A program made the position numbers and the translations under genes. From Gammaproteobacteria bacterium (GTDB lineage: Bacteria > Pseudomonadota > Gammaproteobacteria > QZLD01), in NCBI GenBank assembly GCA_033852075.1, contig JAWSVC010000010.1, positions 105,683 through 169,682 on the forward strand: a stretch of 64,000 bases of DNA, in the 5' to 3' direction. The notes under the pieces are model-generated. The model worked only from the letters and a program-made list of their open reading frames with translations, was not told the origin of the DNA and did not search any database. Shown here piece after piece: positions 11,479-56,259 of the stretch (the stretch's first letter is position 1; every line of letters starts with the position of its first letter).

Positions 11479-11574
11479 CTGGATACCGGCCTTCGCCGGT
11501 ATGACGTATTAAGGCTTTAGTGCAGATTTATTTATACTACAACGTGCGTCATTCCCGCGAAGGCGGGAATCCAG
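11479..11574. repeat. Two REP-like hairpin units: GGAT-accggccttcgccggt-ATGACG, and CGTCAT-tcccgcgaaggcgggaat-CCAG
   Basis: Perfect stem-loops with a conserved GAAGG/CCTTC loop and CGTCAT/ATCCAG flanks. The same family recurs at 23447, 33302, 47577 and 56179-56259. Confidence 0.7.
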
Positions 11575-11649
11575 AGAATCTTGTCGTGCAAAGATTATAT
11601 TTTCACTTTTTTGGGAATAGTGAATAAAAGGGTATGGAGTAAATTATTA

Positions 11650-13071
11650 ATGATTAAGTTTTTACCGGGTTTAATGGTTGTCGTGGTGCTATTCACTGCA
11701 TCATGTCGGGCGGTTAAATCTGAAGATATTAAGAGTAGTGAACAGGCGCAAGCAGAGCAACCTACTGCAGCAGAAACAAAAAAAGTAGCCGAATTCAAAC
11801 TTGATAATGGTCTGAAAATTCTGGTTAAAGAGGATCATCGTGCGTCTATAGTTACCTCACAGGTTTGGTATAAAGTTGGTTCCAGTTTTGAGCCTGCTGG
11901 GTTGACCGGAATTTCACATATGCTTGAGCATATGATGTTTAAGGGGACCAAAAAATTTCCATCGGGGATGGCTCGCAAGATTATTGCTGAGAATGGCGGT
12001 AATGAGAACGCCTATACCAGCCGCGACCACACAGTGTATTACCAAAATATAGAAAAGAGTCGTTTGGAGATCTGTTTTGAACTGGAGGCAGATCGTATGG
12101 TTAATCTGCTTTTGGATGATAAAGAATTCCAAAAAGAACGTCAGGTAGTTTTGGAAGAGCGACGTATGCGCACCGAGGATAATCCAAACGCTAAATTATA
12201 TGAGCGCTTTAATGCGGTTGCTTATTTAAGTAATGGTTATGCAACACCTGTGATTGGTTGGCAGCATGATATTGATGGTTATACCATCGAGGATTTAAGA
12301 CAATGGTATCAGGACTGGTATACGCCACAGAATGCAACTTTGGTGGTAGTTGGTGATGTTAATTCACAAGAGGTTTATCAGCTAGCCAAAAAATACTTTG
12401 GTCCAATTAAAGGCAAGCTGGTAAGGCAGGTAAAACCTTCTGTAGAGATAGAACCTCTTGGAAGGAAAGATCTGCAGGTAAAGGCTAAGGCTCAGTTGCC
12501 AATAATAATTGCAGGATATTCAGTACCATCTTTTATTACAGCAAAAGAAGATTGGGAACCATATGCCTTAACTGTGCTGGCTGGAATTATGGATGGAGGT
12601 GCAAGTTCCAGATTTACTTCTCGCTTGGTACGAGGTAAAGAGCTGGCTGTGTGGGCAGGTGTAGGTTATAACCCATTATCCAGACTAGATTCGCAATTTA
12701 GTATTTGGAGTAGTCCTGCTCATGGTGTAGATATAAATGATCTGATTGCTGCGATAAATACCGAAATAGCTGAACTTAAAAAGGAACTGGTTTCTGAGGG
12801 TGAGTTGGAGCGGGTTAAGGCTCAGGTTATGGCAAGTGCTATTTATGAGTTGGATTCTGTAAGTGCTCAGGCTAGGGAGATTGGGCAATTGGAGACTCTT
12901 GGGCTTGGTTGGGAATTTGTTGATGAATACTATCAAAGATTTCAGCAGGTAACTGCAAAGCAAGTGCAAGCAGTTGCTAGAAAATATCTTGTTGATGAGC
13001 GTCTGACATTCGCACGTTTGATTCCTGAAAAAGAGGATATTTCTATGGCTAATGATGGAGGGAAACAATAA
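11650..13071 (+). CDS. M16-family zinc metallopeptidase (insulinase/pitrilysin-like), active subunit
   Basis: Inverted zinc motif HMLEHMMFKGT (HxxEH) and an N-terminal signal/lipobox-like segment. Start chosen at MIKFLPG (ATG 11650). Confidence 0.8.
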   Translation: MIKFLPGLMVVVVLFTASCRAVKSEDIKSSEQAQAEQPTAAETKKVAEFKLDNGLKILVKEDHRASIVTSQVWYKVGSSFEPAGLTGISHMLEHMMFKGTKKFPSGMARKIIAENGGNENAYTSRDHTVYYQNIEKSRLEICFELEADRMVNLLLDDKEFQKERQVVLEERRMRTEDNPNAKLYERFNAVAYLSNGYATPVIGWQHDIDGYTIEDLRQWYQDWYTPQNATLVVVGDVNSQEVYQLAKKYFGPIKGKLVRQVKPSVEIEPLGRKDLQVKAKAQLPIIIAGYSVPSFITAKEDWEPYALTVLAGIMDGGASSRFTSRLVRGKELAVWAGVGYNPLSRLDSQFSIWSSPAHGVDINDLIAAINTEIAELKKELVSEGELERVKAQVMASAIYELDSVSAQAREIGQLETLGLGWEFVDEYYQRFQQVTAKQVQAVARKYLVDERLTFARLIPEKEDISMANDGGKQ

Positions 13072-14414
13072 TGCTGAATCTAAATAAATATTTGTTTTTT
13101 ATTGTTGCCGTATTTTTTGCTAGTCATGTGGTAGCAGCACCAAAGATAGAGGAGTGGTATTCCAGCAATGGTGCCAGGGTATTGTTTGTGCAGGCAGATA
13201 GTTTGCCGATGGTTGATTTCAGTATCTCTTTTGCTGCTGGAGCAGCAAGAGATGGAGAGTTATATGGCCTTGCAGTTGCAACCAATAGCCTTCTTAATGA
13301 GGGGGCTGGAGGTGTTTCAGCTACAGAGATATCTAAACGTTTAGAACAGGTAGGGATAAAATTAGGGGCTGGTGTTAGTAAAGATATGGCCTGGATTGGC
13401 ATGCGTTCGCTTTCTAATAAAGAGAAGTTGCAACATGGTATCGAAGTATTGAATATGATGCTGACCAATCCCGATTTTGGTGAACAGCAGATTGAAAGGC
13501 AGAAAAATTTTATGCGTATTAATCTGGAGCAGATAAAACAGTCTCCAGATAAGATTGCTGGTTTAACGATGTTTGCAAAGCTATATCCGGATCATCCATA
13601 TGGCAGACCTACAGATGGTAATAAAGATACGATTGAACAGATCAAAAGGTCTGATGTTCAAGGGTTCTTTAAGCGTTATTACGTTGCTGAGAATGCAACG
13701 GTAGTAATCGTTGGTGATATTGATTCTGCAGGGGCTCATGAGCTGGTAGAACAGGTTTTAGCTGGAGTCGCTAAAGGGGAAAAGGCGGAAGTGTTGCCGC
13801 AGGTAGAAACCGTAAATGCTGATGATGTTGAGATAGAGTATCCATCGCAGCAAACGCATATCCTGATTGGACAGAATGCAATTAAAAAAGGTGATCCGCG
13901 TTTTCATGCTTTGTATGTTGGAAATTATATATTGGGCGGAGGTAGCTTAATCTCATTATTAGGTGATGAGATCAGAGTAAAACGCGGACTTGCTTATAGC
14001 ATATATAGTTATTTTTCTACAATGCGACAGCGCGGTATATTTATCTTAGGGGCGCAGACCCGGGGTGAACAAGCGCAGCAATCAGTGGAAGTGATGCGGC
14101 AAGTATTGAGAGATTTTATCGAAAATGGGCCGACACAAGAGCAGCTTGATGCCGCCAAGAAAAGTATAACTGGTAGTTATCCGCTTGGAGTTGCCAGTAA
14201 TAGCGATATAGCAGGATTTTTGAAGGTGATAGGATTTTATGATTTGCCGCTGGATTATATGGACACGTTTACCGCAAAAATTGATAAGGTGACTGTAAAA
14301 GATGTGCAAGAAGCATTTGCAGCGGTGGTAAAACCTGAAAACATGGTTACTGTGCTTGTAGGTAGAAAGATTGTTGATGAGGGTGTGAAAAATCAGCAGG
14401 ATGAAGATGAATAA
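13071..14414 (+). CDS. M16-family peptidase, second (probably non-catalytic) subunit
   Basis: 447 aa with a signal peptide and the M16 fold-length. It lacks the HxxEH motif and its start is coupled to the upstream peptidase stop (TAATG). Confidence 0.7.
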   Translation: MLNLNKYLFFIVAVFFASHVVAAPKIEEWYSSNGARVLFVQADSLPMVDFSISFAAGAARDGELYGLAVATNSLLNEGAGGVSATEISKRLEQVGIKLGAGVSKDMAWIGMRSLSNKEKLQHGIEVLNMMLTNPDFGEQQIERQKNFMRINLEQIKQSPDKIAGLTMFAKLYPDHPYGRPTDGNKDTIEQIKRSDVQGFFKRYYVAENATVVIVGDIDSAGAHELVEQVLAGVAKGEKAEVLPQVETVNADDVEIEYPSQQTHILIGQNAIKKGDPRFHALYVGNYILGGGSLISLLGDEIRVKRGLAYSIYSYFSTMRQRGIFILGAQTRGEQAQQSVEVMRQVLRDFIENGPTQEQLDAAKKSITGSYPLGVASNSDIAGFLKVIGFYDLPLDYMDTFTAKIDKVTVKDVQEAFAAVVKPENMVTVLVGRKIVDEGVKNQQDEDE

Positions 14415-14995
14415 TGGCTCGCAGACCAGGTAAACAAAAAACAACAGCAGATAATACTTTGCGAATAATTGGAGGTGAGTGGCGTAGTAGAAAGCTGCAA
14501 TTTCCTGATGCCAATGGCTTGCGCCCAACATCCGGTAAGATTAGAGAAACGTTGTTTAACTGGCTTGGGCATCAGGTAATAGGTTCGAGTGTTCTGGATA
14601 TGTTTGCAGGTAGTGGTGCGCTTGGACTTGAGGCTCTTTCCAGAGGTGCAACACAAGTTATTATGTTGGAAAAGGATCGCAAGGTAGCTGAACAGCTCAA
14701 GCAAAATTGCGCTATTCTTAAGGTTGATAATGCAGCCGTGATAAATTCAGATGCAATGGCATGGGCTTCTGGTGTTAGCTGTGTGTTTGATATTGTATTT
14801 CTTGATCCACCATTTGCTGCTGAAATGGCTCTTCGGTGTCTTGATCTATGTAAATCTGGAATAGTTAAATGTGATGGTTTCGTATATCTTGAAACCGCAA
14901 AAGATCAACAGGTAGAAATACCAGAAGAATTTGAAGTGTTAAAAGATAAAAGCAGTGGTAATGTTAAGTATCAACTTCTACGAAGGATAAAATAA
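14414..14995 (+). CDS. rsmD: 16S rRNA (guanine966-N2)-methyltransferase
   Basis: LRIIGGEWRSRKL, DMFAGSGALGLEALSRGA, VFLDPPF. Confidence 0.85.
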   Translation: MARRPGKQKTTADNTLRIIGGEWRSRKLQFPDANGLRPTSGKIRETLFNWLGHQVIGSSVLDMFAGSGALGLEALSRGATQVIMLEKDRKVAEQLKQNCAILKVDNAAVINSDAMAWASGVSCVFDIVFLDPPFAAEMALRCLDLCKSGIVKCDGFVYLETAKDQQVEIPEEFEVLKDKSSGNVKYQLLRRIK

Positions 14996-15498
14996 TGAGT
15001 GCAGTAGCAGTATATTCAGGAACCTTTGATCCGATTACAAATGGACATGCAGATATTGCAATTCGTGCTGCAAATATATTCGATAAGGTTATTGTTGCAG
15101 TTGCTGATTTTCCTGGCGCTAGTAAAAAGCCAATCTTTTCCGGTGAGGAACGGATTGAATTGGCAAAAATTGCATTGGCTGAAAAAAGAAACATTGAGGT
15201 AGTTACATTTAACTCTTTACTTGTAGATTTTGTAAAAGAGGTTGATGCCAAAGTAATAATACGCGGAATTCGTTCGTTCACAGATTTTGATTATGAAGCT
15301 CAACTTTCTGGTATGAATAATCATTTAGATCCAAATATAGAAACTGTTTATATGAACTGTACTCCAGAGCTGGGATATATCTCGTCGACACTGGTGAAAG
15401 AGGTTGCGTTTTTGGGGAAAGATGTTTCTGAATTATTGCATCCGGCAGTTGCGTATGCGTTAGCGGAAAGAATTATAGAGTTGCAAAATAATAAGTAA
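14995..15498 (+). CDS. coaD: Phosphopantetheine adenylyltransferase
   Basis: AVYSGTFDPITNGHADI, with family length and context (rsmD-coaD). Confidence 0.93.
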   Translation: MSAVAVYSGTFDPITNGHADIAIRAANIFDKVIVAVADFPGASKKPIFSGEERIELAKIALAEKRNIEVVTFNSLLVDFVKEVDAKVIIRGIRSFTDFDYEAQLSGMNNHLDPNIETVYMNCTPELGYISSTLVKEVAFLGKDVSELLHPAVAYALAERIIELQNNK

Positions 15499-15504
15499 TT
15501 AAAA

Positions 15505-15531
15505 GAAAAAACGCCCCGCAGGGCGTTTTTT
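15505..15531 (+). terminator. Rho-independent terminator after coaD
   Basis: aaaaaACGCCCCGCAGGGCGTttttt. Confidence 0.7.
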
Positions 15532-15638
15532 AAATGGTAGATGTTACTAAGCTGTTTTCAGAGATCTAAACCGGACAGTTTATGTGCTACAAGACCGGAC
15601 ATATTATGTGCTTACTACATGGGTAATATAGGTTGTGA

Positions 15639-15995
15639 TTACCAGTCTTTTTCAGGGATTTTCCAAGGATGGTATTTGGCAATAAATTCCGGGTCGTCAA
15701 AGTCTTCTTTGCTAGGTAGATAGCCTTGGTAGTCATCACGGAGGTGCTGAAAAAATACGCATTCAATTATTTCAGCAGGATATTTATGTTTGAAGGTTTC
15801 AATTACTTCATTTAGAGCTTCTTTATGATGTTTGTGTTGTCTATGTGAAAATGGATTGTAATATTCCATATCGCCAGTTTCTATTACTACCTGAAACTTT
15901 ATCTTGTCGAAGTGGCTATCAATCCATTTGTGGATGTCTTTGGCGCTTTCTCCACACAGTTTTTTTGTATTCCTAGCGTGCTGTCGTAACTTCAT
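15639..15995 (-). CDS. Hypothetical His-rich cytoplasmic protein (118 aa)
   Basis: An ORF with no recognisable family (HRQHKHHKEAL segment). Its strand is opposite to the neighbouring genes. Confidence 0.35.
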   Translation of the reverse strand: MKLRQHARNTKKLCGESAKDIHKWIDSHFDKIKFQVVIETGDMEYYNPFSHRQHKHHKEALNEVIETFKHKYPAEIIECVFFQHLRDDYQGYLPSKEDFDDPEFIAKYHPWKIPEKDW

Positions 15996-16107
15996 TGTTT
16001 ATTGTGTCCAATCCTTGTCCGGTTAACCATTATAGTTAGAAAAATTGATTTTGTAATTTTCTTTATAAGTAATAGTATAGGCGGTCAGAGATAATATTGA
16101 GAAAACT

Positions 16108-16572
16108 ATGTTTCATATAGCACTAGCAAATCCAGAAATACCGCCCAATACCGGTAATATAATCAGGTTGTGCGCCAATACAGGCTCACAGCTGCATCTT
16201 ATTCATCCAATAGCATTTCAGTTGGATGATAAAAGATTAAGGCGTGCAGGACTTGATTACCATGAATGGGCGTCAGTAAAAGAGTATTTATGTATGGACG
16301 ATTTCTTGAGGGAGTTTGCTGATAGCAGGATATTTGCATTGTCTACCCATGGAACCAGAACATATTCAGATGTTCAATTTAAAGCAGGGGATGTGTTTTT
16401 ATTTGGATCTGAGACCAGAGGGTTAGGAACCGATTTTTTATCGTCCATGCCGCAAGAGAATGTATTGCGACTTCCTATGCTGGAGAATAGCCGTAGTCTG
16501 AACTTATCAAATACAGCTGCTATTATGTTATATGAGGCATGGCGACAGAATGAGTTTGCTGGAGCAAAATAA
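16108..16572 (+). CDS. trmL: tRNA (cytidine/uridine-2'-O)-methyltransferase, SpoU/TrmL family
   Basis: IPPNTGNIIRLCANTG, FGSETRGL, LNLSNTAAIMLYEAWRQ. Confidence 0.88.
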   Translation: MFHIALANPEIPPNTGNIIRLCANTGSQLHLIHPIAFQLDDKRLRRAGLDYHEWASVKEYLCMDDFLREFADSRIFALSTHGTRTYSDVQFKAGDVFLFGSETRGLGTDFLSSMPQENVLRLPMLENSRSLNLSNTAAIMLYEAWRQNEFAGAK

Positions 16573-16645
16573 AAAGCATGTTATTCCTGCGTAGGTTGGA
16601 ATCTTGATATGACAGAGTGGTTTTTTATTTGTTCTGGATCCAAGA

Positions 16646-17413
16646 ATGAGTTTGGAAACTATTAAGGGAGAAAAAATGGAAAACGATAATTTTGACCAAC
16701 AAGGGATGAATGGGACTGGTTATGATGAACGTAGCAGTCAGCCGCCTCCGCCTCCACTGCCACCAAAGAGTAATGCAGGAAAATATATCGGAATTGGTTG
16801 TCTGGTTATTGTGTTGATATTTATTGGCTTGGGCTATGCTGGTTATCGTATGGTAGTTGGGTTGATGAATGATGTAGTAGCAGAATATACAGATGTTGAG
16901 GCGCGTGAATTGCCAGCGCCAATGGCTTCTAGGGGTGAGTCGGGTGCTACGTTAGATATGTTTGATGAATTTGTATATTCAGTAAAAAATGATGTTGCTG
17001 TTGAATCGCTAGCGCTGGATGCTGAGCAAATTAACCAAATAATAAATTATCATCCAGAATTTGCTGGTGTTGCTGAACACGTTTTTATAAAGATTAATGA
17101 AAATTTAGTGTCGGCAGAGGTTAGCATTCCTCTTGATGGTTTAAAAGAGATGAGCGAGTTATTCGTTGGTCGTTATTTAAATGGGGCTATAGAGCTTGAT
17201 TTGGAACTTAAAAACGAGCGTTTTGAGGTTTATGCTGAGTCAATTGAGGTAAATGGGAAAAAGATTCCTGAAGAGTATATGAGTCAGTTTCGTACAGAGA
17301 ATCTAGCAAAGGATTTTAATAAGAAACGGGAAAATAAAGAGCTTATTGAAAAACTTGAGTCTATTGAAATTGAGGGTGGGGTTGTCACTGTGGTGCCGAA
17401 GAATAGGCTATAA
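16646..17413 (+). CDS. Hypothetical membrane-anchored protein with a proline-rich N-terminus
   Basis: PPPPPLPP segment, one TM helix (IGIGCLVIVLIFIGLGYAGY) and a C-terminal soluble domain of unknown family. The start may be the internal Met at 16676. Confidence 0.45.
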   Translation: MSLETIKGEKMENDNFDQQGMNGTGYDERSSQPPPPPLPPKSNAGKYIGIGCLVIVLIFIGLGYAGYRMVVGLMNDVVAEYTDVEARELPAPMASRGESGATLDMFDEFVYSVKNDVAVESLALDAEQINQIINYHPEFAGVAEHVFIKINENLVSAEVSIPLDGLKEMSELFVGRYLNGAIELDLELKNERFEVYAESIEVNGKKIPEEYMSQFRTENLAKDFNKKRENKELIEKLESIEIEGGVVTVVPKNRL

Positions 17414-17461
17414 ATAGCGTATTTGTTTGGTTAGCGTATAGAAATATTAATATCTAAGAAT

Positions 17462-17490
17462 AAAAAAGGGCCGTTTGGCCCTTTTTTAAA
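17462..17490. terminator. Bidirectional rho-independent terminator
   Basis: aaaaaaGGGCCgtttGGCCCttttttaaa, lying between convergent genes. Confidence 0.7.
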
Positions 17491-17509
17491 TTCAAATTTC
17501 TAACTGATA

Positions 17510-19674: not shown

Positions 19675-19684
19675 ATCAAAAAAT

Positions 19685-19882
19685 GTAGGACATCCTCCGC
19701 TTGTGCCGGTCTGGCCGCTGCCCCTGAACCAACGGTTCAGGTGGGACGGATGAGTTACTTTGCAGGTTTTCCGCACGTGACGGATATACGCAACAAGCAA
19801 AAACACCTAGTGTCCCGTATTTAGTAATTAGGCTCAAGAGGTACCCAGGCCTTGTTCGAACACAGCAGGGGACGTCACTTTT
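19685..19882 (-). ncRNA. ssrS: 6S RNA (SsrS)
   Basis: Minus-strand sequence ...GUGACGUCCCCUGCUGUGUUCGAACAAGGCCUGGGUACCUCUUGAGCC...CACCUGAACCGUUGGUUCAGGGGCAGCGGCCAGACCGGCACAAGCGGAGGAUGUCC aligns with E. coli 6S RNA, including 5'/3' closing-stem complementarity. It is in the canonical zapA-ssrS-ygfA position. Ends are approximate (+/-5 nt). Confidence 0.72.
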
Positions 19883-19936
19883 AGGTTCTTACAAATAGTG
19901 AATAATGTCAATTGAGTGTTTCAAAATATAGAAAAA

Positions 19937-21227: not shown

Positions 21228-21402
21228 TGGATTTATAAGTAGGAAAGCGTCATCATTGATTTGGTCCGGGGACCGGCAAATATAGCAAAGCTAATTTTGC
21301 CGCGTAAAGCGCGCATACTAAATCGGTTTATTAATACTATGGATTAACTTCTTCGTGGGAATGACGAATTTTTGATAAATGGTTTTTGGGATATGGTTAA
21401 AA

Positions 21403-22701: not shown

Positions 22702-22708
22702 TTCGCGC

Positions 22709-22816
22709 CTATTTCCCCAAATACTGCGTTATATCTCCAGACTTATTCGGGCACATATTTCATATATGCTTCCTCATAAGGCTTCGATATGCCTTGTCTT
22801 TGGGAAAATATTCTGC
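22709..22816. repeat. ~105-bp MITE-like intergenic element, copy A, with imperfect terminal inverted repeats
   Basis: About 80% identical to 33058-33166. Termini TATTTCCCCAAA ... TTTGGGAAAATA are inverted repeats, and there is an internal hairpin AAGGCTTCG..GCCTTG. Confidence 0.55.
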
Positions 22817-22887
22817 GAATTAACTGTGCCCGGGCAGTATGTGCGTTTATTTTTTATAAACCGCGCCTTGATCTTGAAAAAATATCC

Positions 22888-23415: not shown

Positions 23416-23446
23416 TTTATTACCGGTAGAAAATTATATAAAGTCA

Positions 23447-23474
23447 CGTCATACCGGCAAATGTCGGTATCCAG
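23447..23474. repeat. REP-like hairpin unit CGTCAT-accggcaaatgtcggt-ATCCAG
   Basis: Same flank and stem architecture as the units at 11479-11574 and 56179-56259. Confidence 0.6.
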
Positions 23475-30076: not shown

Positions 30077-30520
30077 ATGAAAAGGTTAAGATTAATACAA
30101 GGCTTGTTTATAGCGCTATTTGCTTTCTCTCCAATGCTGGCAAATGCAGAGGTCCCTTCCTGGTATCCGCAAACTGGGTACGATATTAGTGGTGTTGTTG
30201 TGCAGATTGATATTCGTAGTAGGGTAATTTTAATTGAAGATGATCAATTGAAGTTATCAACCAGCGTAAAAGCGCACAGTATTGCTGATGAATTTTATTC
30301 CCTTTCGCAAATAAAAGCTGGCGATTTTATTGGAGTAGATGTTTCTGAGTTATCAGATGGCAGTGTGGAAATTGTAGAAATATGGCTGCTTGATAAGGAG
30401 TCTCAATTGCAGGCGTTTCCAGTGCCTCCGGGAACACCTACAGTTTCTTCTAGTACAAAAAAAGATTCTGAGAAAGGTAATAGCCAGGGATTTGGGGTTA
30501 AAAAACAATGGAGAAAGTAA
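30077..30520 (+). CDS. Secreted small protein in the PilY2 position (hypothetical)
   Basis: 147 aa with a signal peptide (FALFAFSPMLANA). It sits between pilY1 and pilE and has no recognisable similarity. Confidence 0.35.
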   Translation: MKRLRLIQGLFIALFAFSPMLANAEVPSWYPQTGYDISGVVVQIDIRSRVILIEDDQLKLSTSVKAHSIADEFYSLSQIKAGDFIGVDVSELSDGSVEIVEIWLLDKESQLQAFPVPPGTPTVSSSTKKDSEKGNSQGFGVKKQWRK

Positions 30521-30939
30521 TGTATAGAAAACATAAAGGGTTTTCGCTGATAGAGTTAATGATTGTAGTTGCAGTAATGGCGATATTGGCAGCTGTAGCA
30601 TTTCCATCATATATGTCACACGTTCAAAAAACCCGTAGAGCTGATGGACAGTCAAAATTGATGGAGATAATGGGGCTGGAAGAGCGCCATTATTCTTTGA
30701 ATAATACTTATGTCGTGCTATCAGGATTGAGTGCCTATGGTAGTGATTCTGTAGATAGTGATGAGGGGTTCTATTCTATATCTGCGGCCGCATGTGGAAG
30801 TGGTCTTGGGAGTTGTGTGCAGTTAACAGCAACTCCGCAAGGTGCTCAGGCTAATGATAGTGAATGTGGAGCTCTTACCTATGATTCGCGAGGTCAAAAA
30901 GGTGAAGGTGGTACAGGATCGGTTGATGATTGTTGGTAA
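30520..30939 (+). CDS. pilE: Type IV minor pilin PilE
   Basis: KGFSLIELMIVVAVMAILAAVAFPSY, a C-terminal Cys pair, and last gene of the operon. Start ATG 30520, coupled to the upstream stop. Confidence 0.8.
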   Translation: MYRKHKGFSLIELMIVVAVMAILAAVAFPSYMSHVQKTRRADGQSKLMEIMGLEERHYSLNNTYVVLSGLSAYGSDSVDSDEGFYSISAAACGSGLGSCVQLTATPQGAQANDSECGALTYDSRGQKGEGGTGSVDDCW

Positions 30940-31200: not shown

Positions 31201-31240
31201 TTAGCTCAAATAATCATTTCAGAATTCTGTTATGCCGGTA

Positions 31241-31368
31241 CAGGTATTAATACCGTTCGTGCTGAGCGCGAAGCAGTCGAAGTATGAAACGGTATTGATG
31301 AAAGGTTTGCAAGCACCCTTCGACTGCTCGTACCTCGCGCTCAGGATGAACGGGATTTTAAGCTTTTA
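31241..31368 (+). repeat. Composite palindromic intergenic element, copy 1
   Basis: CCGTTCGTGCTGAGCGCGAAGCAGTCGAAG ... CTTCGACTGCTCGTACCTCGCGCTCAGGATGAACGG are imperfect ~30-nt inverted arms. About 85% identical to 47577-47736 and to the reverse complement of 37224-37357. Confidence 0.7.
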
Positions 31369-33057: not shown

Positions 33058-33166
33058 TCCTATTTTGTCCAATACTGCGTTATAGCTCCAGACTTGTTCA
33101 GTTACATATTGCAATATGCGCCTTCACAAGGCTTCGCTTTGCCTTGTCTTGGGCAAAATATGCTAA
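33058..33166. repeat. ~105-bp MITE-like intergenic element, copy B
   Basis: Paralogue of 22709-22816, with terminal inverted repeats CTATTTTGTCCAA / TTGGGCAAAATAT. The ORF 33094-33291 inside it is spurious. Confidence 0.55.
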
Positions 33167-33301
33167 AAATTAAAAGTCTACTGTATTGTATTCGCATTGC
33201 GTTTTTTATTCGTAAAATAAGTAGCATGCTGTTGTTCGGAGCAGGTTGGAATGTGGAGTTTATAAGCTGGGTTCAAATAGTAATTAATTAGCAGCTTTTT
33301 T

Positions 33302-33329
33302 TCTGGATTCCCGCCTTCACGGGAACGAC
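33302..33329. repeat. REP-like hairpin unit (inverted orientation, slightly degenerate)
   Basis: CTGGAT-tcccgccttcacgggaa-CGACG. Confidence 0.5.
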
Positions 33330-33426
33330 GGATGCGTAAATGCAAAAAACCCTTAATTTAACTCGCAATTATCCGCTATTTTTAGGATAATCTACGGTTC
33401 TGGTTGTCCGGTACGTCACTTGGGAT

Positions 33427-37223: not shown

Positions 37224-37357
37224 AAAAGCTATTCCGTTCATCCTGAGCGTGAGGTACGAACAGTCGAAGGGTGATAGTAAAAAGCCGAATTAATACCGTT
37301 TCATACTTCGACTGCTTCGCGCTCAGCACGAACGGCATTAATTTCCCCGGACAGCAG
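37224..37357 (-). repeat. Composite palindromic intergenic element, copy 2 (inverted)
   Basis: Reverse complement matches copies 1 and 3, including the flank CATTAATTTCCCCGGACAGCAG. Confidence 0.7.
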
Positions 37358-37448
37358 TGGGACTTGACTCGGTATCCAGTAAAAGAAAGTTTGCAGCGCG
37401 AAGCGCTAATTTTACGTAATATTAATGAATAGGATTCTTTTGGAGTAG

Positions 37449-47508: not shown

Positions 47509-47576
47509 TTCTTTTTGCTATGTAGGGGCGCGGCGTGCCGTGCCCAAATAAGTTTCATCTTTCTGCTAATAGCGTT

Positions 47577-47736
47577 GTCATTCCCGCGAAGGCGTGCTGC
47601 TGTCTGGGGAAATTAATGCCGTTCGTGCTGAGCGCGAAGCAGTCGAAGTATGAAATGGTATTAATTCAGTTGTTTACTATCACCCTTCGACTGTTCGTAC
47701 CTCACGCTCAGGATGAACGGAGATTTTAAGCTTTTT
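47577..47736 (+). repeat. Composite palindromic intergenic element, copy 3, with a half REP unit (GTCATTCCCGCGAAGGCG) at its 5' end
   Basis: Aligns with 31241-31368, and in inverted orientation with 37224-37357. It lies between convergent prsT and the RND gene. Confidence 0.7.
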
Positions 47737-47769: not shown

Positions 47770-50700
47770 TTAATTCTCCACAAACGAAGTTGGTGGATCA
47801 ATTTCAGCATAAACTGGTTTCGTTGTTGCCCTTCTGTGTCCCAGTTTATATCCAAGCATTAACAAAGCCGGTGTCAGGATCAGGGTAAGAACTGTTGCAA
47901 AGGTTAGCCCTCCTGCAACTGCGGTTGCCAACTGTTTCCACCACTGAGAAGATGGGGCATCTATGGTTAAGTGTCTACCGATAAGGTCAATGTTCAGTCC
48001 CAGCATCATTGGCATTAGTCCGAGAATGGTGGTTACAGTTGTAAGCATTACCGGTCTTAATCTTTGGGCCCCGGTACGAATAATTGCCTCAGCAGCTCCC
48101 ATGTTGGTTGTTTCTAAAAGTTGGTTGAAGGTATCAATCAAAACGATATTGTTATTAACCACAATCCCTGCCAGAGATATAACTCCAATTCCACTCATAA
48201 CAATACCAAATGGTGTGCCAGTAATCATGTGCCCAAGTAAAACCCCTGCGGTTGAGAAAACGACCGCACTTAAGATCAGTAGCGACTGGAAGAAGCTATT
48301 GAATTGGGTAACTAGAATAATGGCAATCATAAATATTGCTACCATGAATGCCTTTAATAGGAATATAGTTGCTTTTTGCTGTTCTTCGTTGTCTCCACGG
48401 AAGCGGATGTTGACTCCGTTAGGAAGAATCTGATTTTTTTGTATTAGGCTTCGTATCTCTTTTATCTTTTGGTCCGATGTTACCTTTTCACCATTTTGAT
48501 CGGTTTTGATTATATCTGCCTCAATAGTTAGAACCCTTCTACCATCAACACGCTCTATCTTGCTGATTCTGTTTTTTGGGATCAGCTTTACAAAATTGCT
48601 GGCCGGAATATTTCCGTTTTGGGTTGGAATGCGAATCTTCTTAAGCTGATCAATGCTGCGGTTAACCTCTGGAAAACGGATGCGGATATCAAGTTCGTCT
48701 ACAGAGTCATCTGGGCGGAAAGTCCCGATATTGATGCCATTGGTAACCATCTGTACCGCATTGCCAAGGCTTGTAATATCTGCTCCATATTTGCTGGCTT
48801 CAGCGCGGTCTACTTTTAGTTGCCATTCAATTCCTGGGATAGGGCGTGAGTCGCTTATATTGATCAGCCCTTCAATCTCGTTATGAAACATATTGGACAG
48901 GTCCTCAATTGCAGGAGGAAGTAAATCGTAATCTATTGAATTTATTTCAACCTGGATGGCCTTGCCTTGGCTGGGACCATGTTTTTCTTTTTGAGTTTCT
49001 ATAACGATTCCGTTCAGGTGAACGGTGTTATCACGAATTTCCTGAAAGATCTCTTCTGCTGGTCTGCGGATTTGCCAATCGGCAAATTCAAGTTGAATAA
49101 TGCCGATAACATCTTCAGTTATGCCAGGGCCGCCAAACTTAAGTCCGCTTCTGCTATATACCGTAGTAAATCCTTCGATTTTCAGTACCTGATCTTCAAC
49201 CTCGGCTACAAGCTTGTCTCTTTCATAAATCGAAAGGTCTCCGCGAGCATGAATTAATACCATTCCATTTTCCGGTTCAGCTTCCGGGAACAGTTCAACG
49301 CCATTTCCAAATTTACCATAGAGAACTATGGTGCAAACCAGGATTAATAATATGCTTAAAAGGGTTTTTGCCGGATGTTTTACCGCGGTGGAAAGTACTT
49401 TTATGTATATCTTGGTAAAGCCTGTCATGTGATTTAGATCGCCAGATTCTGCAATAGCAAGGTTTTCCATATTGCGGTCACTATCTGGTGCCCGTTTGCC
49501 AAAGATTGACCCTAGGCTTGGTACAAATATAAGGGCCATAAATAATGAAGCTGCTAGAGTAGTAATCAGGGTTATGGGTAGATATTTCATAAACTCTCCC
49601 ATTATCCCCGGCCAGACAATTAATGGGGCAAAGGCGGCAAGTGTGGTTGCGGTTGATGCGATTATAGGCCATGCCATCCTTTTGGATGCGATCATATATG
49701 CCTGTTTTTTACAAAGCCCTTCGGCCATTTTGCGATCTGCTATCTCTACCACAACAATTGCGCCATCTACCAACATTCCTACCGACATAATAAGGCTGAA
49801 AAGCACTACCATGTTGATAGTAAACCCCATGGCAGCTAGGATTAGAATTCCGGTAACAAAAGATCCTGGTATCGCCATTCCTACCAGCCCAGCCGATCTT
49901 AATCCAAGTGAGGCGATAATAACGATCATTACCAGAATAACTGCAAATATTACGTTGTTCTGTAGTTCGCGCAGCATGTCGTTGATGACTATAGATTGAT
50001 CTTGAGAGAAACCGATATTTATACCTTTAGGCCATAGGCTTTGTTCATTCTTTACCAGCTGCTTTACCTTGGATAAGGTATCAATAACATTGGCACCAAT
50101 CGATTTTGAAACCTCCAGCGCAATTGCTGGTTGGCCATTAACTCTGGCGAACTCTAATGGATCTTTATATATCCTTTGGCCGGTTGCAATGTCACTGAAT
50201 TTTATAACGGTATTGCCATCTACCTTTATGGGGACATCAAGAATATCCTCAATCTCTTCAAATACTCCGGGAACCTTTATTGAGAATCGACCTTCTCCTG
50301 TGTCTAATGCACCTGCAGCAACCAAACGATTGTTGCGTGATACAAACTGGAATATTTCACTTTGAGAAAGGTGATAACTCTCCATTTTTTGTGGGTCGAT
50401 AACAATTTCGATCATCTCATCTTTATCGCCGGCAATGCTGGCTCCGTATACCCCTGATATTGATTCAATCTTGTCTTTAAGGTCATTGGCAATAGTTATT
50501 AAAGTGCGATCAGATACATCTCCTGATAAGGTGATAACTAAAACGGGAAACAGGGCAACATTTACCTCGCTTACCACTGGGTCATCAGATTCTCCAGGCA
50601 GGTCTGATTTGGCGGTATCAACCTTATCACGAACATCGCGCAGGGCTTTTTCACTGTCAAATCCAGCTTGGAATTTAATGGTGATATTTGCATTACTTTC

Positions 50701-50958
50701 TGATGCCGTAGAGGTGATTTCATCCAGGCCTTCAACGCTGCGTAATTCGGTTTCCATAGGGCGAATTAGCAGCCTTTCTGAATCTGTAGCAGATATTCCT
50801 TCGTGGTGAATAGAGACGTTGATTATCGGAATGGCAACATCAGGAAATGATTCCTTAGGTATGGAGATGTAAGAAACCGTTCCTGAAATCAGAATAAGAA
50901 GCAAGATCAGCAGTACTGATCTGGTGTGTCTAAGGGTTGACTGAATAGCTGTGCGCAT
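47770..50958 (-). CDS. RND-family efflux transporter permease (AcrB/CzcA superfamily)
   Basis: 1062 aa with 12 TM segments and two large periplasmic loops. Confidence 0.9.
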   Translation of the reverse strand: MRTAIQSTLRHTRSVLLILLLILISGTVSYISIPKESFPDVAIPIINVSIHHEGISATDSERLLIRPMETELRSVEGLDEITSTASESNANITIKFQAGFDSEKALRDVRDKVDTAKSDLPGESDDPVVSEVNVALFPVLVITLSGDVSDRTLITIANDLKDKIESISGVYGASIAGDKDEMIEIVIDPQKMESYHLSQSEIFQFVSRNNRLVAAGALDTGEGRFSIKVPGVFEEIEDILDVPIKVDGNTVIKFSDIATGQRIYKDPLEFARVNGQPAIALEVSKSIGANVIDTLSKVKQLVKNEQSLWPKGINIGFSQDQSIVINDMLRELQNNVIFAVILVMIVIIASLGLRSAGLVGMAIPGSFVTGILILAAMGFTINMVVLFSLIMSVGMLVDGAIVVVEIADRKMAEGLCKKQAYMIASKRMAWPIIASTATTLAAFAPLIVWPGIMGEFMKYLPITLITTLAASLFMALIFVPSLGSIFGKRAPDSDRNMENLAIAESGDLNHMTGFTKIYIKVLSTAVKHPAKTLLSILLILVCTIVLYGKFGNGVELFPEAEPENGMVLIHARGDLSIYERDKLVAEVEDQVLKIEGFTTVYSRSGLKFGGPGITEDVIGIIQLEFADWQIRRPAEEIFQEIRDNTVHLNGIVIETQKEKHGPSQGKAIQVEINSIDYDLLPPAIEDLSNMFHNEIEGLINISDSRPIPGIEWQLKVDRAEASKYGADITSLGNAVQMVTNGINIGTFRPDDSVDELDIRIRFPEVNRSIDQLKKIRIPTQNGNIPASNFVKLIPKNRISKIERVDGRRVLTIEADIIKTDQNGEKVTSDQKIKEIRSLIQKNQILPNGVNIRFRGDNEEQQKATIFLLKAFMVAIFMIAIILVTQFNSFFQSLLILSAVVFSTAGVLLGHMITGTPFGIVMSGIGVISLAGIVVNNNIVLIDTFNQLLETTNMGAAEAIIRTGAQRLRPVMLTTVTTILGLMPMMLGLNIDLIGRHLTIDAPSSQWWKQLATAVAGGLTFATVLTLILTPALLMLGYKLGHRRATTKPVYAEIDPPTSFVEN

Positions 50959-50963
50959 CAGAA

Positions 50964-52118
50964 TTACCCTCCAGTAACAGATGAAGAGTTAGTGGTGTTA
51001 GTTATCTCTTCAATAGTTGCTTTAACCTGCTCTCCATCTTTTACGAATCCATGACCAATAGTTATTACCTGAACATTGGCAGGCAGTCCGGTAACCCAGG
51101 TTGTATTTGATGATGAGTTGATGATTTCAATTGGCAAAAATTTAACTTTGTTGTCGGAAGTTACAGTCTTTACTCCGATATTTCCAGATGGATCAAGTGA
51201 TATTATTGAAGGGGATATAGTATGGGTAATGATGTCGTCATTGTTAAGACATAGTTCAGCAGTCAACCCTGCAAGGATTTGATTATCCTCATTGATCGCT
51301 TTTAATTCTACAGCAAAGGTTCTGGTTTGTGCATTGGCAATAGATGAAATATAGCTGACTGAGCCTTTAGCATTGATACCGGAAAGAGTGGTTGCTGTTC
51401 CTGTGGTGCCGATTTTTATCTTGGAAATATTTTGTTCGGTTATTGATGTGTCAAAAACAATAGGGGAAATGGTTATTAGTTCTGCCAATGCTTTGCCTGT
51501 GGTTATAAAATCACCTTCTTCGGTATATGTGGTGTTGATAATTCCGTCGAATGGGGCGGTGATAGAAATGTTTTCGATCTCAAGCTTTATTTGCGCAAGC
51601 TGAGTTTTTGCCCCTTCAAGGTTAGCCTTGGCCGCAGCCAAATTGGTTTCTGTAGAAAAATTCTTTTTCTGTAGTTTTTTGGCGACTTGATATTCCAGTT
51701 TAAAGCGTTCAAGTTGAGCTTCTGCCTGAGATTTTCTTTCAATCCGGTCATCAAGATCTATTTTAAAAAGGATATCACCTTTTTTAACGTTATCTCCTTT
51801 GGAGACTAATTTTTTTGATAGTTTGCCCGATACTTCAGCTTTTACCTCAAGTATTTTTGATGGTTTGGTCGTCGCTGTGGTGCATATTTTAGGGGAAAAA
51901 CTAACTTGTTTTAAAATCTGTGTGCGAACATGTTTGATTTCGTCTTTGGTTGGCTTAACTATTGGTTTGTTAATAACGGGCTCAGATGAATAGGCTCCGG
52001 ATGCTATCCAACCAGTAAGTAAAATGGCAATTGTTATAGCAATTATTATTGATTGGTTGGTTTTTATAGCTTTTATCATTGTCGGTACCTTTGTATATCT
52101 CAGATCAGGCTTCGGCAC
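50964..52118 (-). CDS. RND efflux periplasmic adaptor (membrane fusion protein, HlyD family)
   Basis: N-terminal TM anchor, central coiled coil (AEAQLERFKLEYQVAKKLQKK ... LEGAKTQLAQIKLEIE), and beta-barrel and lipoyl-like segments. The real start may be the internal Met at 52079. Confidence 0.8.
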   Translation of the reverse strand: MPKPDLRYTKVPTMIKAIKTNQSIIIAITIAILLTGWIASGAYSSEPVINKPIVKPTKDEIKHVRTQILKQVSFSPKICTTATTKPSKILEVKAEVSGKLSKKLVSKGDNVKKGDILFKIDLDDRIERKSQAEAQLERFKLEYQVAKKLQKKNFSTETNLAAAKANLEGAKTQLAQIKLEIENISITAPFDGIINTTYTEEGDFITTGKALAELITISPIVFDTSITEQNISKIKIGTTGTATTLSGINAKGSVSYISSIANAQTRTFAVELKAINEDNQILAGLTAELCLNNDDIITHTISPSIISLDPSGNIGVKTVTSDNKVKFLPIEIINSSSNTTWVTGLPANVQVITIGHGFVKDGEQVKATIEEITNTTNSSSVTGG

Positions 52119-52145
52119 CGGGTAACTTATTAAACCATATTGGTA

Positions 52146-52952
52146 TTATGCAATGCTACGTCCCGGTTCTAGCTGAGATTTAGATTTTAAAGTTGAGCAT
52201 ACATAAGAGAATGCAGAATCAATACGCTGATTGTCTGGTAGCGTAGCTCGTATCATCTGAAGATAGTCTCTTTGTAAAATAAGCTGTGCAGTTTTATCAT
52301 GATTAATATCGAAAACCCAGCTTAATTGCAACAACTTAAAGTCATTTAATGAATGCAGTTCATTATACTTTATAGGTTTGTGAGAGAAAATGCTATTAAT
52401 CGCTGAATCTGAAATGTGCTTGCTATCTTCAAGTTCTAGTTCAACGGTTTTATTCTTTTCAGTATTGCGGTTTTGATAGTGTTCGGTGACGACTCGGTAT
52501 ATGTCCAGTTTATCTGCATCTCTAAGTAAAGATAAGAAAAACTGAGAGCGTTCGGATAGTCCGGTTGGGAGCTTGGGGAGATTGTGGTGGCGCACGCAGT
52601 CGATGATTATGTGTTTATCTCGTGATTCTACAAAATCGAGGATATTAGAATCTTCAAGAATTTCAGCACCAAATTCTCCGTGACTTACTGAGCGGTTATC
52701 GGCAAAGGTGGAATATTTTACATACTGTTCAAATCTTCCAATATCATGTAAAAGCCCAATTGCCTCCGCCAGTATAAGATCGTTTCTATCAACACCAATA
52801 CTAAGAGCAATTGTGGTGATCTCTTTGCTAACCTTCCAAGAGTGAACCTCTTTTAAGCCAATATTTTTTTTCCAGTCTGGAACGCGATATTTAAAAGACC
52901 GCACATACTCAGTGAATTTGAGTTTTATATCATTTAATTGTTCCAGTTCCAT
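52146..52952 (-). CDS. HD-domain metal-dependent phosphohydrolase
   Basis: H...HD...H...HH...D pattern (LLHDIGRF, VSHGEFG, VRHHNL, RDADKLD). Confidence 0.7.
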   Translation of the reverse strand: MELEQLNDIKLKFTEYVRSFKYRVPDWKKNIGLKEVHSWKVSKEITTIALSIGVDRNDLILAEAIGLLHDIGRFEQYVKYSTFADNRSVSHGEFGAEILEDSNILDFVESRDKHIIIDCVRHHNLPKLPTGLSERSQFFLSLLRDADKLDIYRVVTEHYQNRNTEKNKTVELELEDSKHISDSAINSIFSHKPIKYNELHSLNDFKLLQLSWVFDINHDKTAQLILQRDYLQMIRATLPDNQRIDSAFSYVCSTLKSKSQLEPGRSIA

Positions 52953-52976
52953 CAGAATCTCCTACAACTAATTCCG

Positions 52977-53579
52977 TTAGCCGACGTTATCAAGTATCCG
53001 TTTTCTAAATTTTACATGTCTTTCTGTGGCCAGTTTTTCGCAGGCGTCTATATCGACACCGTTAAGACCTTCGATAGCAGAGGCGGTAACATCATCGATA
53101 TATTTGGGTGCCATCTCAACAAAATCCAACATTGCCTGGTATGATCCAATCATGGCCGGTTGGCAGTGGTGGTTATATACCTTTTCATTTTGAGCATTCA
53201 TTGATATTGATATTGCATCAACACACTCACCAAGCTCAGGTAGTACATTGCGTTTATAGACAAGATTTGCCAATCCATCAGTATTTACACGAACCTTGCC
53301 TCCGTGGTCTTTAATCCAATGCGCAATGGCTAAAAGCTCTTTTAGACGCAAGGTTGGTTCTCCAAATCCGCAAAAAACTATCTCGGTATATTTGGTTGGA
53401 TCGCCAATCGCGGCAATGTAATGCTCGACATCGGTTTTTTCATGTAGTGTTAAATCGTATTTATGAACGATTGGGTGACCTTGGGTTTTAGGACAGAACT
53501 GACATTTAAGTGTGCAGGTGCTATTCAGATTTATATAGCGACGGTCTTCAATATCATAAACCAGAATGTCGTCAGACAT
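52977..53579 (-). CDS. Small radical-SAM protein (4Fe-4S CX3CX2C), QueE/NrdG-sized
   Basis: CTLKCQFC near the N-terminus and a GFGEPTL SAM/Gly-rich motif. 200 aa. It is co-directional with the HD gene, 24 nt upstream of it. Confidence 0.7.
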   Translation of the reverse strand: MSDDILVYDIEDRRYINLNSTCTLKCQFCPKTQGHPIVHKYDLTLHEKTDVEHYIAAIGDPTKYTEIVFCGFGEPTLRLKELLAIAHWIKDHGGKVRVNTDGLANLVYKRNVLPELGECVDAISISMNAQNEKVYNHHCQPAMIGSYQAMLDFVEMAPKYIDDVTASAIEGLNGVDIDACEKLATERHVKFRKRILDNVG

Positions 53580-53711
53580 ATGACCCTCTTAGAGTTAAAA
53601 TAGTAGAGGCTTTTAAAACCTTTTTGATTTCCTAGCAAAATGTGTGAAGCGAGAATTTCGCTGCAATGCAGCATTGTAGCATTGTTTTTGTTGTGAAATC
53701 AATAAGGAAAA

Positions 53712-54740
53712 CTAATTCTCAACCTTCCACTCAATATCTTGTCCAGCCATAAAAGGTACTACTGTGCTGTCTCCAAATGGAAATGAATAAGGTATTGTGT
53801 GCCTTTCTTTAGTTAGAGTTATCTTTTCTTTATTGCGATTAAGTCCGTAATAGTCGGCTCCGTAAAAACTAGTGAAAGCTTCTAATTTATGCAGACATTT
53901 TGCTTCGTCAAATGCTTGGCAATAAAGTTCTAGTGCATTTGCAGCCGTATAAATTCCAGCAGAGCCCCCAGCTTTGATCTTGTTTTCGATTGGATGTGGA
54001 GCACTGTCGGTTCCGGCAAAAAATTTAGGGTTTCCGGATGTGGTTGCAGCAATCAAAGCTTTTCTATCTTCTGCAGTTTTTGCAATTGGCAGGCAATAGT
54101 TATGTGGATTTATTCCTTCATTGAAAATGTCATTCCTGGTTATAAACAGGTGATGTGCGGTAATGGTACAAGCAATATTAGGACCTGCGCGTTCAACGAA
54201 CTGGATCATTTCTTTGGTGGTTGCGTGTTCGCAGATAATTCTAAGTGCTGGAAAATTTTGGGTAAGAAAAGTAAGTTCTCTATCAATAAATACCTTTTCC
54301 CGGTCGAATATATCAATGTTGGGATCTGTTACCTCGCAATGAATGGAGAGCGGCATCCCCATCTCTTGTAATTGATTTAGAAGTAACGAGCATTTTTCTA
54401 TGGCCGAAACACCATGTTCAGAATTGGTGGTTGCTCCAGCAGGGTAGTATTTTACCGCAGCAAAGCCTAAGTCTTTTGCGCGAGTCAGTTCATCAGGTGT
54501 GGTATTTTCTGTCAGGTAAAGGGTCATAAGAGGGTCGAAGTTTTTGTTTTCAACCGCATTCATTATTCTCTGTTTGTATTCCAGGGCGGTATCAACTGAT
54601 GTAACCGGTGGGACGATATTGGGCATTATCATTGCGCGGGAGAATATATTAGCGCTGTGATTAACTACAGATGCCATTGCGTTTCCGTCGCGCAGGTGAA
54701 GGTGAAAATCGTCTGGTTTGGTAATGGTTATGCTGTTCAT
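53712..54740 (-). CDS. pyrC: Dihydroorotase (type II, homodimeric)
   Basis: PDDFHLHLRDG, AVKYYPAGATTNS, and a C-terminus matching E. coli PyrC. Start at MNSITI. Confidence 0.9.
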   Translation of the reverse strand: MNSITITKPDDFHLHLRDGNAMASVVNHSANIFSRAMIMPNIVPPVTSVDTALEYKQRIMNAVENKNFDPLMTLYLTENTTPDELTRAKDLGFAAVKYYPAGATTNSEHGVSAIEKCSLLLNQLQEMGMPLSIHCEVTDPNIDIFDREKVFIDRELTFLTQNFPALRIICEHATTKEMIQFVERAGPNIACTITAHHLFITRNDIFNEGINPHNYCLPIAKTAEDRKALIAATTSGNPKFFAGTDSAPHPIENKIKAGGSAGIYTAANALELYCQAFDEAKCLHKLEAFTSFYGADYYGLNRNKEKITLTKERHTIPYSFPFGDSTVVPFMAGQDIEWKVEN

Positions 54741-54875
54741 CTTATGGTCCTGAAGAAACATTTGCGTTAAATGGTTCTGAAATTAGAATATTTTGGTATC
54801 ATACCTGTTGCTCATAAAGATATGAAGCAAGATAATATCACATTCCGTAAATCTAATTTCTGGAGTCAATTGTAA

Positions 54876-56087
54876 ATGTCCAAGGTTAAGAAAGTCGTAT
54901 TGGCGTATTCAGGTGGTCTGGATACATCTGTAATTCTAAAGTGGTTACAAGAAACATATGATTGTGAAGTTGTTACTTTTACCGCTGATATCGGTCAGCG
55001 AGGAGAGGTAGAGCCAGCACGTAAAAAGGCTGAGGCTTTAGGTATTCAAGAGATTTACATTGATGATCTGTGTGAAGAGTTTGCTAGAGATTTCGTATTC
55101 CCAATGTTTCGTGCCAATGCAATCTATGAAGGTGAATACTTGCTTGGAACATCTATTGCGCGCCCATTGATTGCTAAAAGACAGATTGAGATTGCTAATG
55201 AAACTGGTGCAGATGCTGTATGTCATGGTGCTACTGGTAAAGGTAATGATCAAGTGCGCTTTGAACTTGGTTATTATGGTTTAAGACCTGATATCAAAGT
55301 AATTGCTCCGTGGCGTGAGTGGGATCTGATGTCGAGAGAAAAGATGCTTGCCTATGCAGATAAGAACGGCATTGTGATCGAAAAGCATGGTCAAAAGTCT
55401 CCGTACTCTATGGATGCCAATTTGCTGCATATCTCTTATGAAGGAGGTATTCTTGAAGATCCATGGGCTGAGCCGGAAGAAGATATGTGGAGATGGACCG
55501 TATCTCCAGAGGCGGCTCCGGATGAACCAACCTATATCGAGCTTACTTATGAGAAGGGTGATGTGGTTGCTATCGATGGCGTTGCTAAGACTCCTGCTCA
55601 GGTGTTGAATGAATTAAACGATATTGCAGGTAAAAACGGTATTGGACGTTTGGATATTGTAGAAAATAGATATGTTGGTATGAAGTCACGTGGATGTTAC
55701 GAGACACCAGCAGGAACTGTATTGCTAAAGGCGCATCGTGCGATTGAATCGCTGACTCTTGATCGTGAAGCTGCGCACCTAAAAGATGAAATTATGCCTA
55801 AATATGCGGCGATGGTTTACAACGGTTATTGGTGGAGTGAAGAGCGCAGAATGCTGCAAACCATGATTGATGCTTCGCAGGAATCAGTAAACGGTGTAGT
55901 TAGGCTTAAGCTTTACAAAGGTAACGTTGTCGTGGTTGGACGTATGTCTGAAACCGATAGTCTGTTCGACGAAGATATCGCAACCTTTGAAGATGATGCC
56001 GGTGCATATGATCATACTGATGCACATGGGTTTATTAGACTGAATGCATTACGCCTAAAGCTAGCAGCCAAGAAGAAAGGAAAATAA
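54876..56087 (+). CDS. argG: Argininosuccinate synthase
   Basis: [12 protein letters not shown], with full-length collinearity to ArgG. Confidence 0.95.
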
Positions 56088-56178
56088 AGCTATTGCTCTC
56101 ATGACACTTTTTAGCGTTGCTGAGATCCCTGATATAGGCAGTAATGCTGTTGGGGAAAGATATAATAGCTAAATATAG

Positions 56179-56259
56179 CGTCATACCGGCGAAGGCCGGT
56201 ATCCAGGAAAGTTAAGGATATATTAATAGCACTGGATGCCGGCCTTCGCCGGCATGACG
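56179..56259. repeat. Inverted pair of REP-like hairpin units (CGTCAT-accggcgaaggccggt-ATCCAG ... CTGGAT-gccggccttcgccggc-ATGACG)
   Basis: Two perfect units in opposite orientation, about 25 nt apart, in the argG-mutL spacer. Confidence 0.7.

Follow-up and report, generated by a model that had tools for sequence, protein, structure and literature searches.

The window analyzed here is a 64-kb stretch of DNA (64,000 nucleotides; contig JAWSVC010000010.1, positions 105,683 to 169,682, assembly GCA_033852075.1) from an uncultured gammaproteobacterium. Pfam scans covered every open reading frame (ORF) of at least 100 amino acids that was not already explained by synteny, plus ten small ORFs in the spacers, and the matches are housekeeping only: ftsY, M16 peptidases, ubiC, a fimT-pilE operon, murJ, ribF, acrB, argG, mutL, rpsT, hfq, and others. 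The non-coding spacers of the window hold six full copies of a 28-nt hairpin unit and three or four remnants, and all of them lie outside ORFs (Table 1). Each full unit parses into a CGTC head, an 8-bp stem interrupted by a 4-nt loop (GAAG; AAAT once), and a CCAG tail. The non-coding share of the window is 11.5%, and the probability that four independent loci would all be non-coding is ~2e-4. A previous interpretation made from the letters alone, called here the sequence-only reading, had listed seven such places. All seven exist when the sequence is read at their coordinates, and most of the coordinates hold; one full unit is shifted to 33303-33330 and the half unit to 47576-47594. That reading had also recognized a hairpin, which stands, but its 7-nt stems around a GAAGG loop are replaced by the 8-bp stem and 4-nt loop. 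Its statement that the units occur in intergenic spacers, singly or as inverted pairs, agrees with the six non-coding full units and their two inverted pairs.

A loose pattern, CGTCNTNCCNGNNNNNNNNGGNANCCAG, that fixes only the positions common to the units was used with at most one mismatch to search the window. It returned exactly the six full units and had no match in 100 dinucleotide-preserving shuffles of the window. The CGTC head, the CCA tail, the 8-bp stem, and the 4-nt loop are present in all six, and the head of the 47576 remnant is TGTC. The stem starts with AT in five units and with GT in one. The units at 11479(-) and 11547(+) form an inverted pair in the divergent ftsY/M16-peptidase spacer, with the CGTC ends pointing inward (a 'TT' dimer in Di Nocera's term) across a 40-nt spacer. 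The units at 56179(+) and 56232(-) make up an inverted doublet, 25 nt apart, whose CGTC ends point outward (an 'HH' dimer).

The stems differ between units, and the differences preserve pairing. Two-sided changes are found in the window at stem pairs 7-22 (UA/AU/GC) and 10-19 (CG/GC). Paired cells account for 91.7% in the window units compared to 21-44% when the partner is slid. The pattern used to scan other genomes left two stem pairs free (W..W and S..S), so the covariation test was unbiased. Among the matches listed, both free pairs are complementary in 140/141, where 25% is expected. These data bear out the earlier claim that the stems co-vary under a constraint on structure. The feature is real, and its structure is constrained. 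Single units fold weakly as single-stranded DNA (ssDNA; -4 to -9 kcal/mol); a single long hairpin of -34.1 kcal/mol (z = -10) is formed by the 56179/56232 doublet. Imperfect units at the at least 120 loci recovered from other genomes contain, on the CGTC strand, 9 G-T/T-G pairs versus 12 A-C/C-A pairs. G-T is not in excess over A-C, so nothing points to RNA-level constraint, and the idea of selection on one strand or on RNA was set aside as unsupported.

These properties were compared with described repeat families. The CGTC-tagged repetitive extragenic palindromes (REPs) were defined by Di Nocera, De Gregorio, and Rocco in 2013 (PMC3733652). Their CGTC-1 family has a CGTC (or TGTC/CCTC) head, an 8-bp stem that starts from AT, a 4-nt loop, and a CCA tail; its dimers are predominantly of the tags-outside 'HH' type, and it is the same element as the Neisseria dRS3 and the Rickettsia conorii RPE-6 (PMC3733652). 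The window units have the tag, the 8-bp stem, the 4-nt loop, and the CCA tail of CGTC-1, no transposase adjoins them, and an excess of HH doublets is seen elsewhere. The differences are that the window has one HH pair and one TT pair, the rare type, and that one unit has GT at the base of its stem; there is otherwise no structural difference. The likeness to the neisserial RS3 repeats proposed by the sequence-only reading is confirmed by the identity of CGTC-1 with dRS3 (PMC3733652) and by the unit at 11547-11574, which matches a neisserial consensus exactly. About half of the dRS3 copies belong to this 28-nt oriented element, the Neisseria Transformation Sequence (NTS), CGTCATTCCCGCGMAVGCGGGAATCYRG (PMC11893778). 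A strict NTS was defined as at most one mismatch to this sequence; one of the six units qualifies, four others are within 4 mismatches, three by compensated stem changes and 33303 by two G-T wobbles, and the unit at 23447 has more than 4 mismatches. The degenerate Ssn-related motif (SRM; HGTCWY-N0-2-YYVSBRH-N0-5-WNVSBRG-N0-2-RNCYNB) matches four units, compared to a mean of 0.12 (maximum 2) in 100 first-order Markov randomizations.

The NTS and the SRM are spatially associated with the nuclease SsnA across phyla, and SRM and Ssn are widely spread among them (PMC11893778, Nat Commun 2025). SsnA is a 94-aa single-domain GIY-YIG protein (cd10448) that binds and cuts the NTS as ssDNA only, on the CGTC strand only, a few bases upstream; duplex DNA and RNA are not substrates, and the RNA form is not bound (PMC11893778). 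Cutting is governed mainly by the three bases that precede the palindrome, and binding by the C that immediately follows it; stem mutations weakened binding by the Neisseria enzyme (PMC11893778). SsnA activity in N. meningitidis lowers the integration of transforming DNA that carries the repeat (PMC11893778). Among the window units, the stems vary but the positions critical for the enzyme (GTC and C25) do not. The window units thus share with the NTS/SRM-SsnA system the 28-nt oriented hairpin, the needed head bases and C, and sites that are nearly all intergenic. They differ in that most of them carry other stems (ATACCGGC, ATGCCGGC) and in that the host is not Neisseria; it is an uncultured gammaproteobacterium of ~40% GC. 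Taken together, the window units are probably copies of the known and very widespread CGTC-1 (dRS3/NTS, RPE-6, Ssn-related) family, recognized by Ssn, non-autonomous, and not driven by a REP-associated tyrosine transposase (RAYT).

Table 1. Hairpin units, unit remnants, and the repeat next to them, with the corresponding spacers of the relatives.
Feature	Position	Strand	Sequence	Details	Spacer in the window	Relatives
Full unit	11479..11506	-	CGTC-ATACCGGC-GAAG-GCCGGTAT-CCAG	8/8 Watson-Crick pairs; fits published SRM motif	ftsY / M16 peptidase	
Full unit	11547..11574	+	CGTC-ATTCCCGC-GAAG-GCGGGAAT-CCAG	identical to NTS consensus; ssDNA hairpin -8.9 kcal/mol	ftsY / M16 peptidase	
Decayed unit	21339..21366	-	CGTC-ATTCCCAC-GAAG-AAGTTAAT-CCAT	3' stem gone	UPF0149 gene / M24 peptidase gene	
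Full unit	23447..23474	+	CGTC-ATACCGGC-AAAT-GTCGGTAT-CCAG	one G-T pair; variant loop	divergent ubiC / fimT	no unit
Possible degenerate 5' fragment	31228..31244	+	TGTTATGCCGGTACAGG	~12/16 matches; weak; read by eye	pilE / murJ, with ~112-nt repeat	no unit
Full unit	33303..33330	-	CGTC-GTTCCCGT-GAAG-GCGGGAAT-CCAG	two G-T pairs	murJ / ribF, 375 nt	no unit; 69 nt in L125
3' fragment	37370..37379	+	CGGTATCCAG	unit positions 19-28	ileS / lspA, 249 nt	no unit; 12-26 nt
5' fragment	47576..47594	+	TGTCATTCCCGCGAAGGCG (TGTC-ATTCCCGC-GAAG-GCG)	unit positions 1-19; 19/28 nt	convergent TPR / acrB, with ~125-nt repeat	no unit
Full unit	56179..56206	+	CGTC-ATACCGGC-GAAG-GCCGGTAT-CCAG	left member of doublet	downstream of argG	
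Full unit	56232..56259	-	CGTC-ATGCCGGC-GAAG-GCCGGCAT-CCAG	right member of doublet	downstream of argG	
~112-125-nt hairpin repeat	31246-31356, 37231-37357, 47597-47721	+, -, +		long imperfect hairpin, z = -5.7		

The distribution of the unit was determined with the pattern CGTCATWCCSGCGAAGGCSGGWATCCAG, which occurs in at least 120 stretches of a species-representative genome collection; ~3e-4 chance occurrences were estimated for the 28-mer in 596 Gb. The flanks of these stretches are unrelated to one another. Hosts among the matches listed include alpha-, beta-, gamma-, and deltaproteobacteria, Dehalococcoidia/Chloroflexota, Planctomycetes, Gemmatimonadetes, Nitrospirae, Acidimicrobiia, and one archaeal metagenome-assembled genome (MAG). 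Most often in this set, two units are inverted 10-50 nt apart with their CGTC ends outermost: 69 pairs are CGTC-outside, 14 are CGTC-inside, and 11 are tandem. The CCA tail is retained in 241/255 of these units. Exact NTS-type units also occur on a contig of a Bathyarchaeota MAG (L052) and on an AT-rich contig of a MAG labeled 'Klebsiella pneumoniae' (L001); these contigs could be mis-binned or could be real transfers.

Syntenic stretches of relatives were reached via the ArgG and MurJ homologues (L121, L122, L124, L125, L127, and L128). These six stretches total ~119 kb and have 85-97% protein identity to the window. Canonical units number six in the 64-kb window and zero in the ~119 kb of relatives (Fisher P = 0.002), so the copies are either recent gains here or recent losses in the relatives. 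The argG-mutL spacer, which carries the doublet in the window, has nothing in the closest (97%) and the most distant (91%) relative. Two relatives of 93-94% identity have at this site a single 'double-headed' hairpin, C(A)TCAT-GCCGGC-CTTC-GTCGGC-ATGACG, located at ~11300-11330 of L121 and also present in L128. It looks like a doublet that may have collapsed by deletion between its two direct ATRCCGGC copies.

The search for partner genes was negative in the window. The Pfam scans found no Y1 transposase (RAYT), and no IS110-type recombinase, insertion sequence (IS), or phage gene, in the 64 kb. The genes between inverted units of other genomes were also inspected for a hidden 'REPtron'. Inverted units 0.3-3.5 kb apart enclose carB, purC, a deacetylase, a peptidase, or nothing recognizable, and this candidate was rejected. 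The lack of a transposase between inverted units repeats the 2013 negative on a small sample.

The sequence-only reading had taken the units as a likely REP/BIME-type (bacterial interspersed mosaic element) family and suggested that a cognate RAYT could exist elsewhere in the genome. The structured hairpin repeats remain; an assignment to RAYT-type REPs is not supported, since the head is CGTC and not GTAG. Mobilization of classical REP/REPIN elements by a RAYT encoded elsewhere would fit the REP-like look of short GC-rich hairpins in spacers, the inverted doublet that forms one long hairpin as REPINs do, and the two GTAG-headed hairpins in the window. The GTAG REP/REPIN-RAYT systems are alike in their short extragenic palindromes, unpaired 4-nt tag, inverted doublets with long hairpins, and probable action as ssDNA. 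Their tag is GTAG, whereas every window unit has CGTC and is without RAYT association, and the partner enzyme folds differ, HUH/Y1 for the RAYTs and GIY-YIG for Ssn. No RAYT or other transposase was flanked by CGTC repeats in the published survey, unlike the GTAG REPs, although Y1 transposases are encoded by many host genomes of CGTC repeats (PMC3733652). The window has no Y1 transposase, the genes flanked by inverted units elsewhere are housekeeping genes, and experiments link this exact motif to another enzyme family, Ssn (PMC11893778). These data make RAYT mobilization very unlikely; they lend the proposal no support, and the link to the Ssn nuclease replaces it. It is unlikely that the units serve mainly as sites where other mobile DNA lands or recombines, such as IS110/Piv-type recombinases, filamentous phage, or the ~125-nt repeat. 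In Neisseria, a phage recombinase is reported to target dRS3 (cited in PMC11893778), IS elements are known to target REPs (PMC3733652), and each of the three ~125-nt repeat copies in the window has a truncated unit next to it, with two of the breaks at unit positions 18-20. However, the missing half-unit does not lie beyond the repeat in any copy, the repeat has no adjoining unit in three metagenome contigs and forms a tandem array in L132, and the window has no recombinase, IS, or phage gene. Such a role would in any case be secondary and compatible with membership in the Ssn-related family.

Two further explanations concern RNA and chance. It is quite improbable that the units are RNA-level elements, that is, intrinsic terminators, mRNA-stabilizing hairpins, or small RNAs (sRNAs). 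The doublet after argG does sit at a 3' end, and positions 56162-56277 give a sub-threshold match to the Rfam family RF02625, WsnRNA46 (45.3 bits versus a gathering threshold of 65.3, E = 2.6e-6). The consensus of WsnRNA46 (Wolbachia sRNA 46) is itself a doublet of the form GTCAT...ATCCAG / CTGGAT...ATGAC. The alignment of the window doublet spans the whole model; the stems of the window doublet are shorter. Judged by this consensus, the WsnRNA46 sRNA family seems to have an Ssn-related repeat as its basis. T-runs are absent after the units, and terminator prediction flags none of them; its calls are confined to a separate hairpin, 56292-56312, and to sites inside another repeat, 33120-33141. 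The first of these is the argG terminator, a GTAG-headed GC-rich hairpin (56290-56312) with a T-run that is conserved in relatives without units. Divergent gene starts, not 3' ends, flank two of the four loci, the mismatch tally on the CGTC strand has no G-U over A-C excess (9 versus 12), SsnA does not bind the RNA form (PMC11893778), and the corresponding spacers of the relatives lack units. That unrelated hairpins resemble one another by chance is discounted entirely, given six units versus none in 100 shuffles and a 28-mer in at least 120 stretches elsewhere versus ~3e-4 expected.

The reading of the window units as members of the CGTC-1/Ssn-related family leads to the following model. Each unit is an oriented 28-nt module in which the CGTC head and the CCA(G) tail are unpaired and flank an 8-bp stem closed by a 4-nt loop; the stem begins with AT and can vary provided that pairing is kept. 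An Ssn-type nuclease encoded beyond the 64-kb window would recognize the units. A cognate nuclease is predicted because 81% of genomes with more than 200 motifs encode an Ssn (PMC11893778). The units would be non-autonomous, either selfish or domesticated, quickly gained and lost in spacers, and usually present as inverted doublets. The fimT-pilE minor-pilin operon in the window includes a pilE-like gene (30508-30939) that matches Pfam ComP_DUS (2e-21). A type IV pilus minor-pilin operon with a predicted ComP_DUS pilin is compatible with DNA uptake.

Several points weigh against the family assignment and this model. Only one of the six units is a strict NTS, and the others have different, compensated stems; binding by the Neisseria enzyme drops when the stem is mutated (PMC11893778). 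A GIY-YIG/Ssn gene is absent from the 64-kb window by Pfam and by a motif search of all ORFs, a difference from the NTS/SRM-SsnA system. The GIY-YIG motif likewise had no match in the ORFs of the at least 120 loci listed, and no Ssn gene was found in 24 kb of N. gonorrhoeae sequence surrounding an exact NTS copy. The cognate nuclease is a prediction here. No spacer comparison gave a clean filled-versus-empty site, because the orthologous spacers are too diverged or hold other insertions, and no target site or duplication is readable.

Other repeats occupy the same spacers. A copy of the ~125-nt hairpin repeat comes right after the 5' fragment at 47576-47594, the 3' fragment at 37370-37379 is 12 nt from the end of another copy, and the possible fragment at 31228-31244 abuts a copy of ~112 nt, a hairpin repeat unrelated to the unit. 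This repeat is absent from the orthologous spacers of the relatives; its core occurs in three metagenome contigs with no unit beside it, and the tandem array in L132 has a 132-nt period. The repeat was considered as an NTS-targeting miniature inverted-repeat transposable element and, as a general rule, rejected, as the missing half-unit is never on its other side and the repeat occurs without the NTS, once as tandem arrays. The most plausible reading of the adjacency of truncated units and the ~125-nt repeat is that several repeat families have accumulated in the same permissive spacers. The neisserial intergenic mosaic elements (NIMEs) likewise interleave dRS3 units with other repeat blocks. 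Unlike the NIMEs, the window has no long arrays, and none of its additional repeat blocks is related to the RS elements of Neisseria. A third repeat pair of ~115 nt (22708-22823 and 33059-33173, 80-82% identical) starts a few bases after the stop codons of the M24 peptidase gene and murJ, at sites where the L125 spacers are just 24 nt and 69 nt. The other GTAG-headed GC-rich hairpin of the window, at 47522-47545, adjoins the truncated CGTC unit and is specific to this genome.

Additional features were noted near the units and elsewhere in the window. A promoter-like site on the minus strand at 23433-23460 (TTGCCG, 16 nt, TATAAT; 10/12 matches) points to ubiC, and its -35 hexamer falls within the unit at 23447-23474. 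The inverted units 23447(+) and 33303(-) bracket the fimT-pilV-pilW-pilX-pilY1-pilE minor-pilin operon and murJ, which may be a coincidence. NTS copies in Neisseria are reported to cluster near certain important genes, some of them for virulence determinants. The 6S RNA gene (ssrS; 70.3 bits) is located at 19690-19874(-) in the usual order zapA - ssrS - 5-formyltetrahydrofolate cyclo-ligase. Synteny with the relatives breaks at 61011-63655, where hflX is followed by two minus-strand genes in place of hflK-hflC; they encode a GGDEF/HAMP protein and a 412-aa protein without a Pfam match.

The feature belongs to an already described family, and what the window adds is modest. For annotation, these hairpins should be labeled CGTC-1/NTS-type (Ssn-related) repeats and not RAYT REPs, terminators, or small ORFs. 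Translation of the units produces recurrent spurious peptides such as WIPAFAGMT and VIPAKA, and translation of the ~112-125-nt repeat produces a recurrent spurious peptide of the 'PFVLSAKQSK' type. In practice, this predicts that a small GIY-YIG Ssn nuclease is encoded in the genome and that ssDNA, whether incoming or replicating, would be cut beside the units. The contrast with unit-free close relatives points to fast turnover and makes this lineage a place to study how the family spreads. A doubtful but conceivable extension is that the units were acquired recently along with a lineage-specific Ssn gene flanked by units, in which case a GIY-YIG ssDNA nuclease would spread the hairpins as the counterpart of the RAYT/REPIN system. 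If that were true, the clade would be a natural before-and-after pair and would answer the question raised in 2013 of what mobilizes CGTC repeats.

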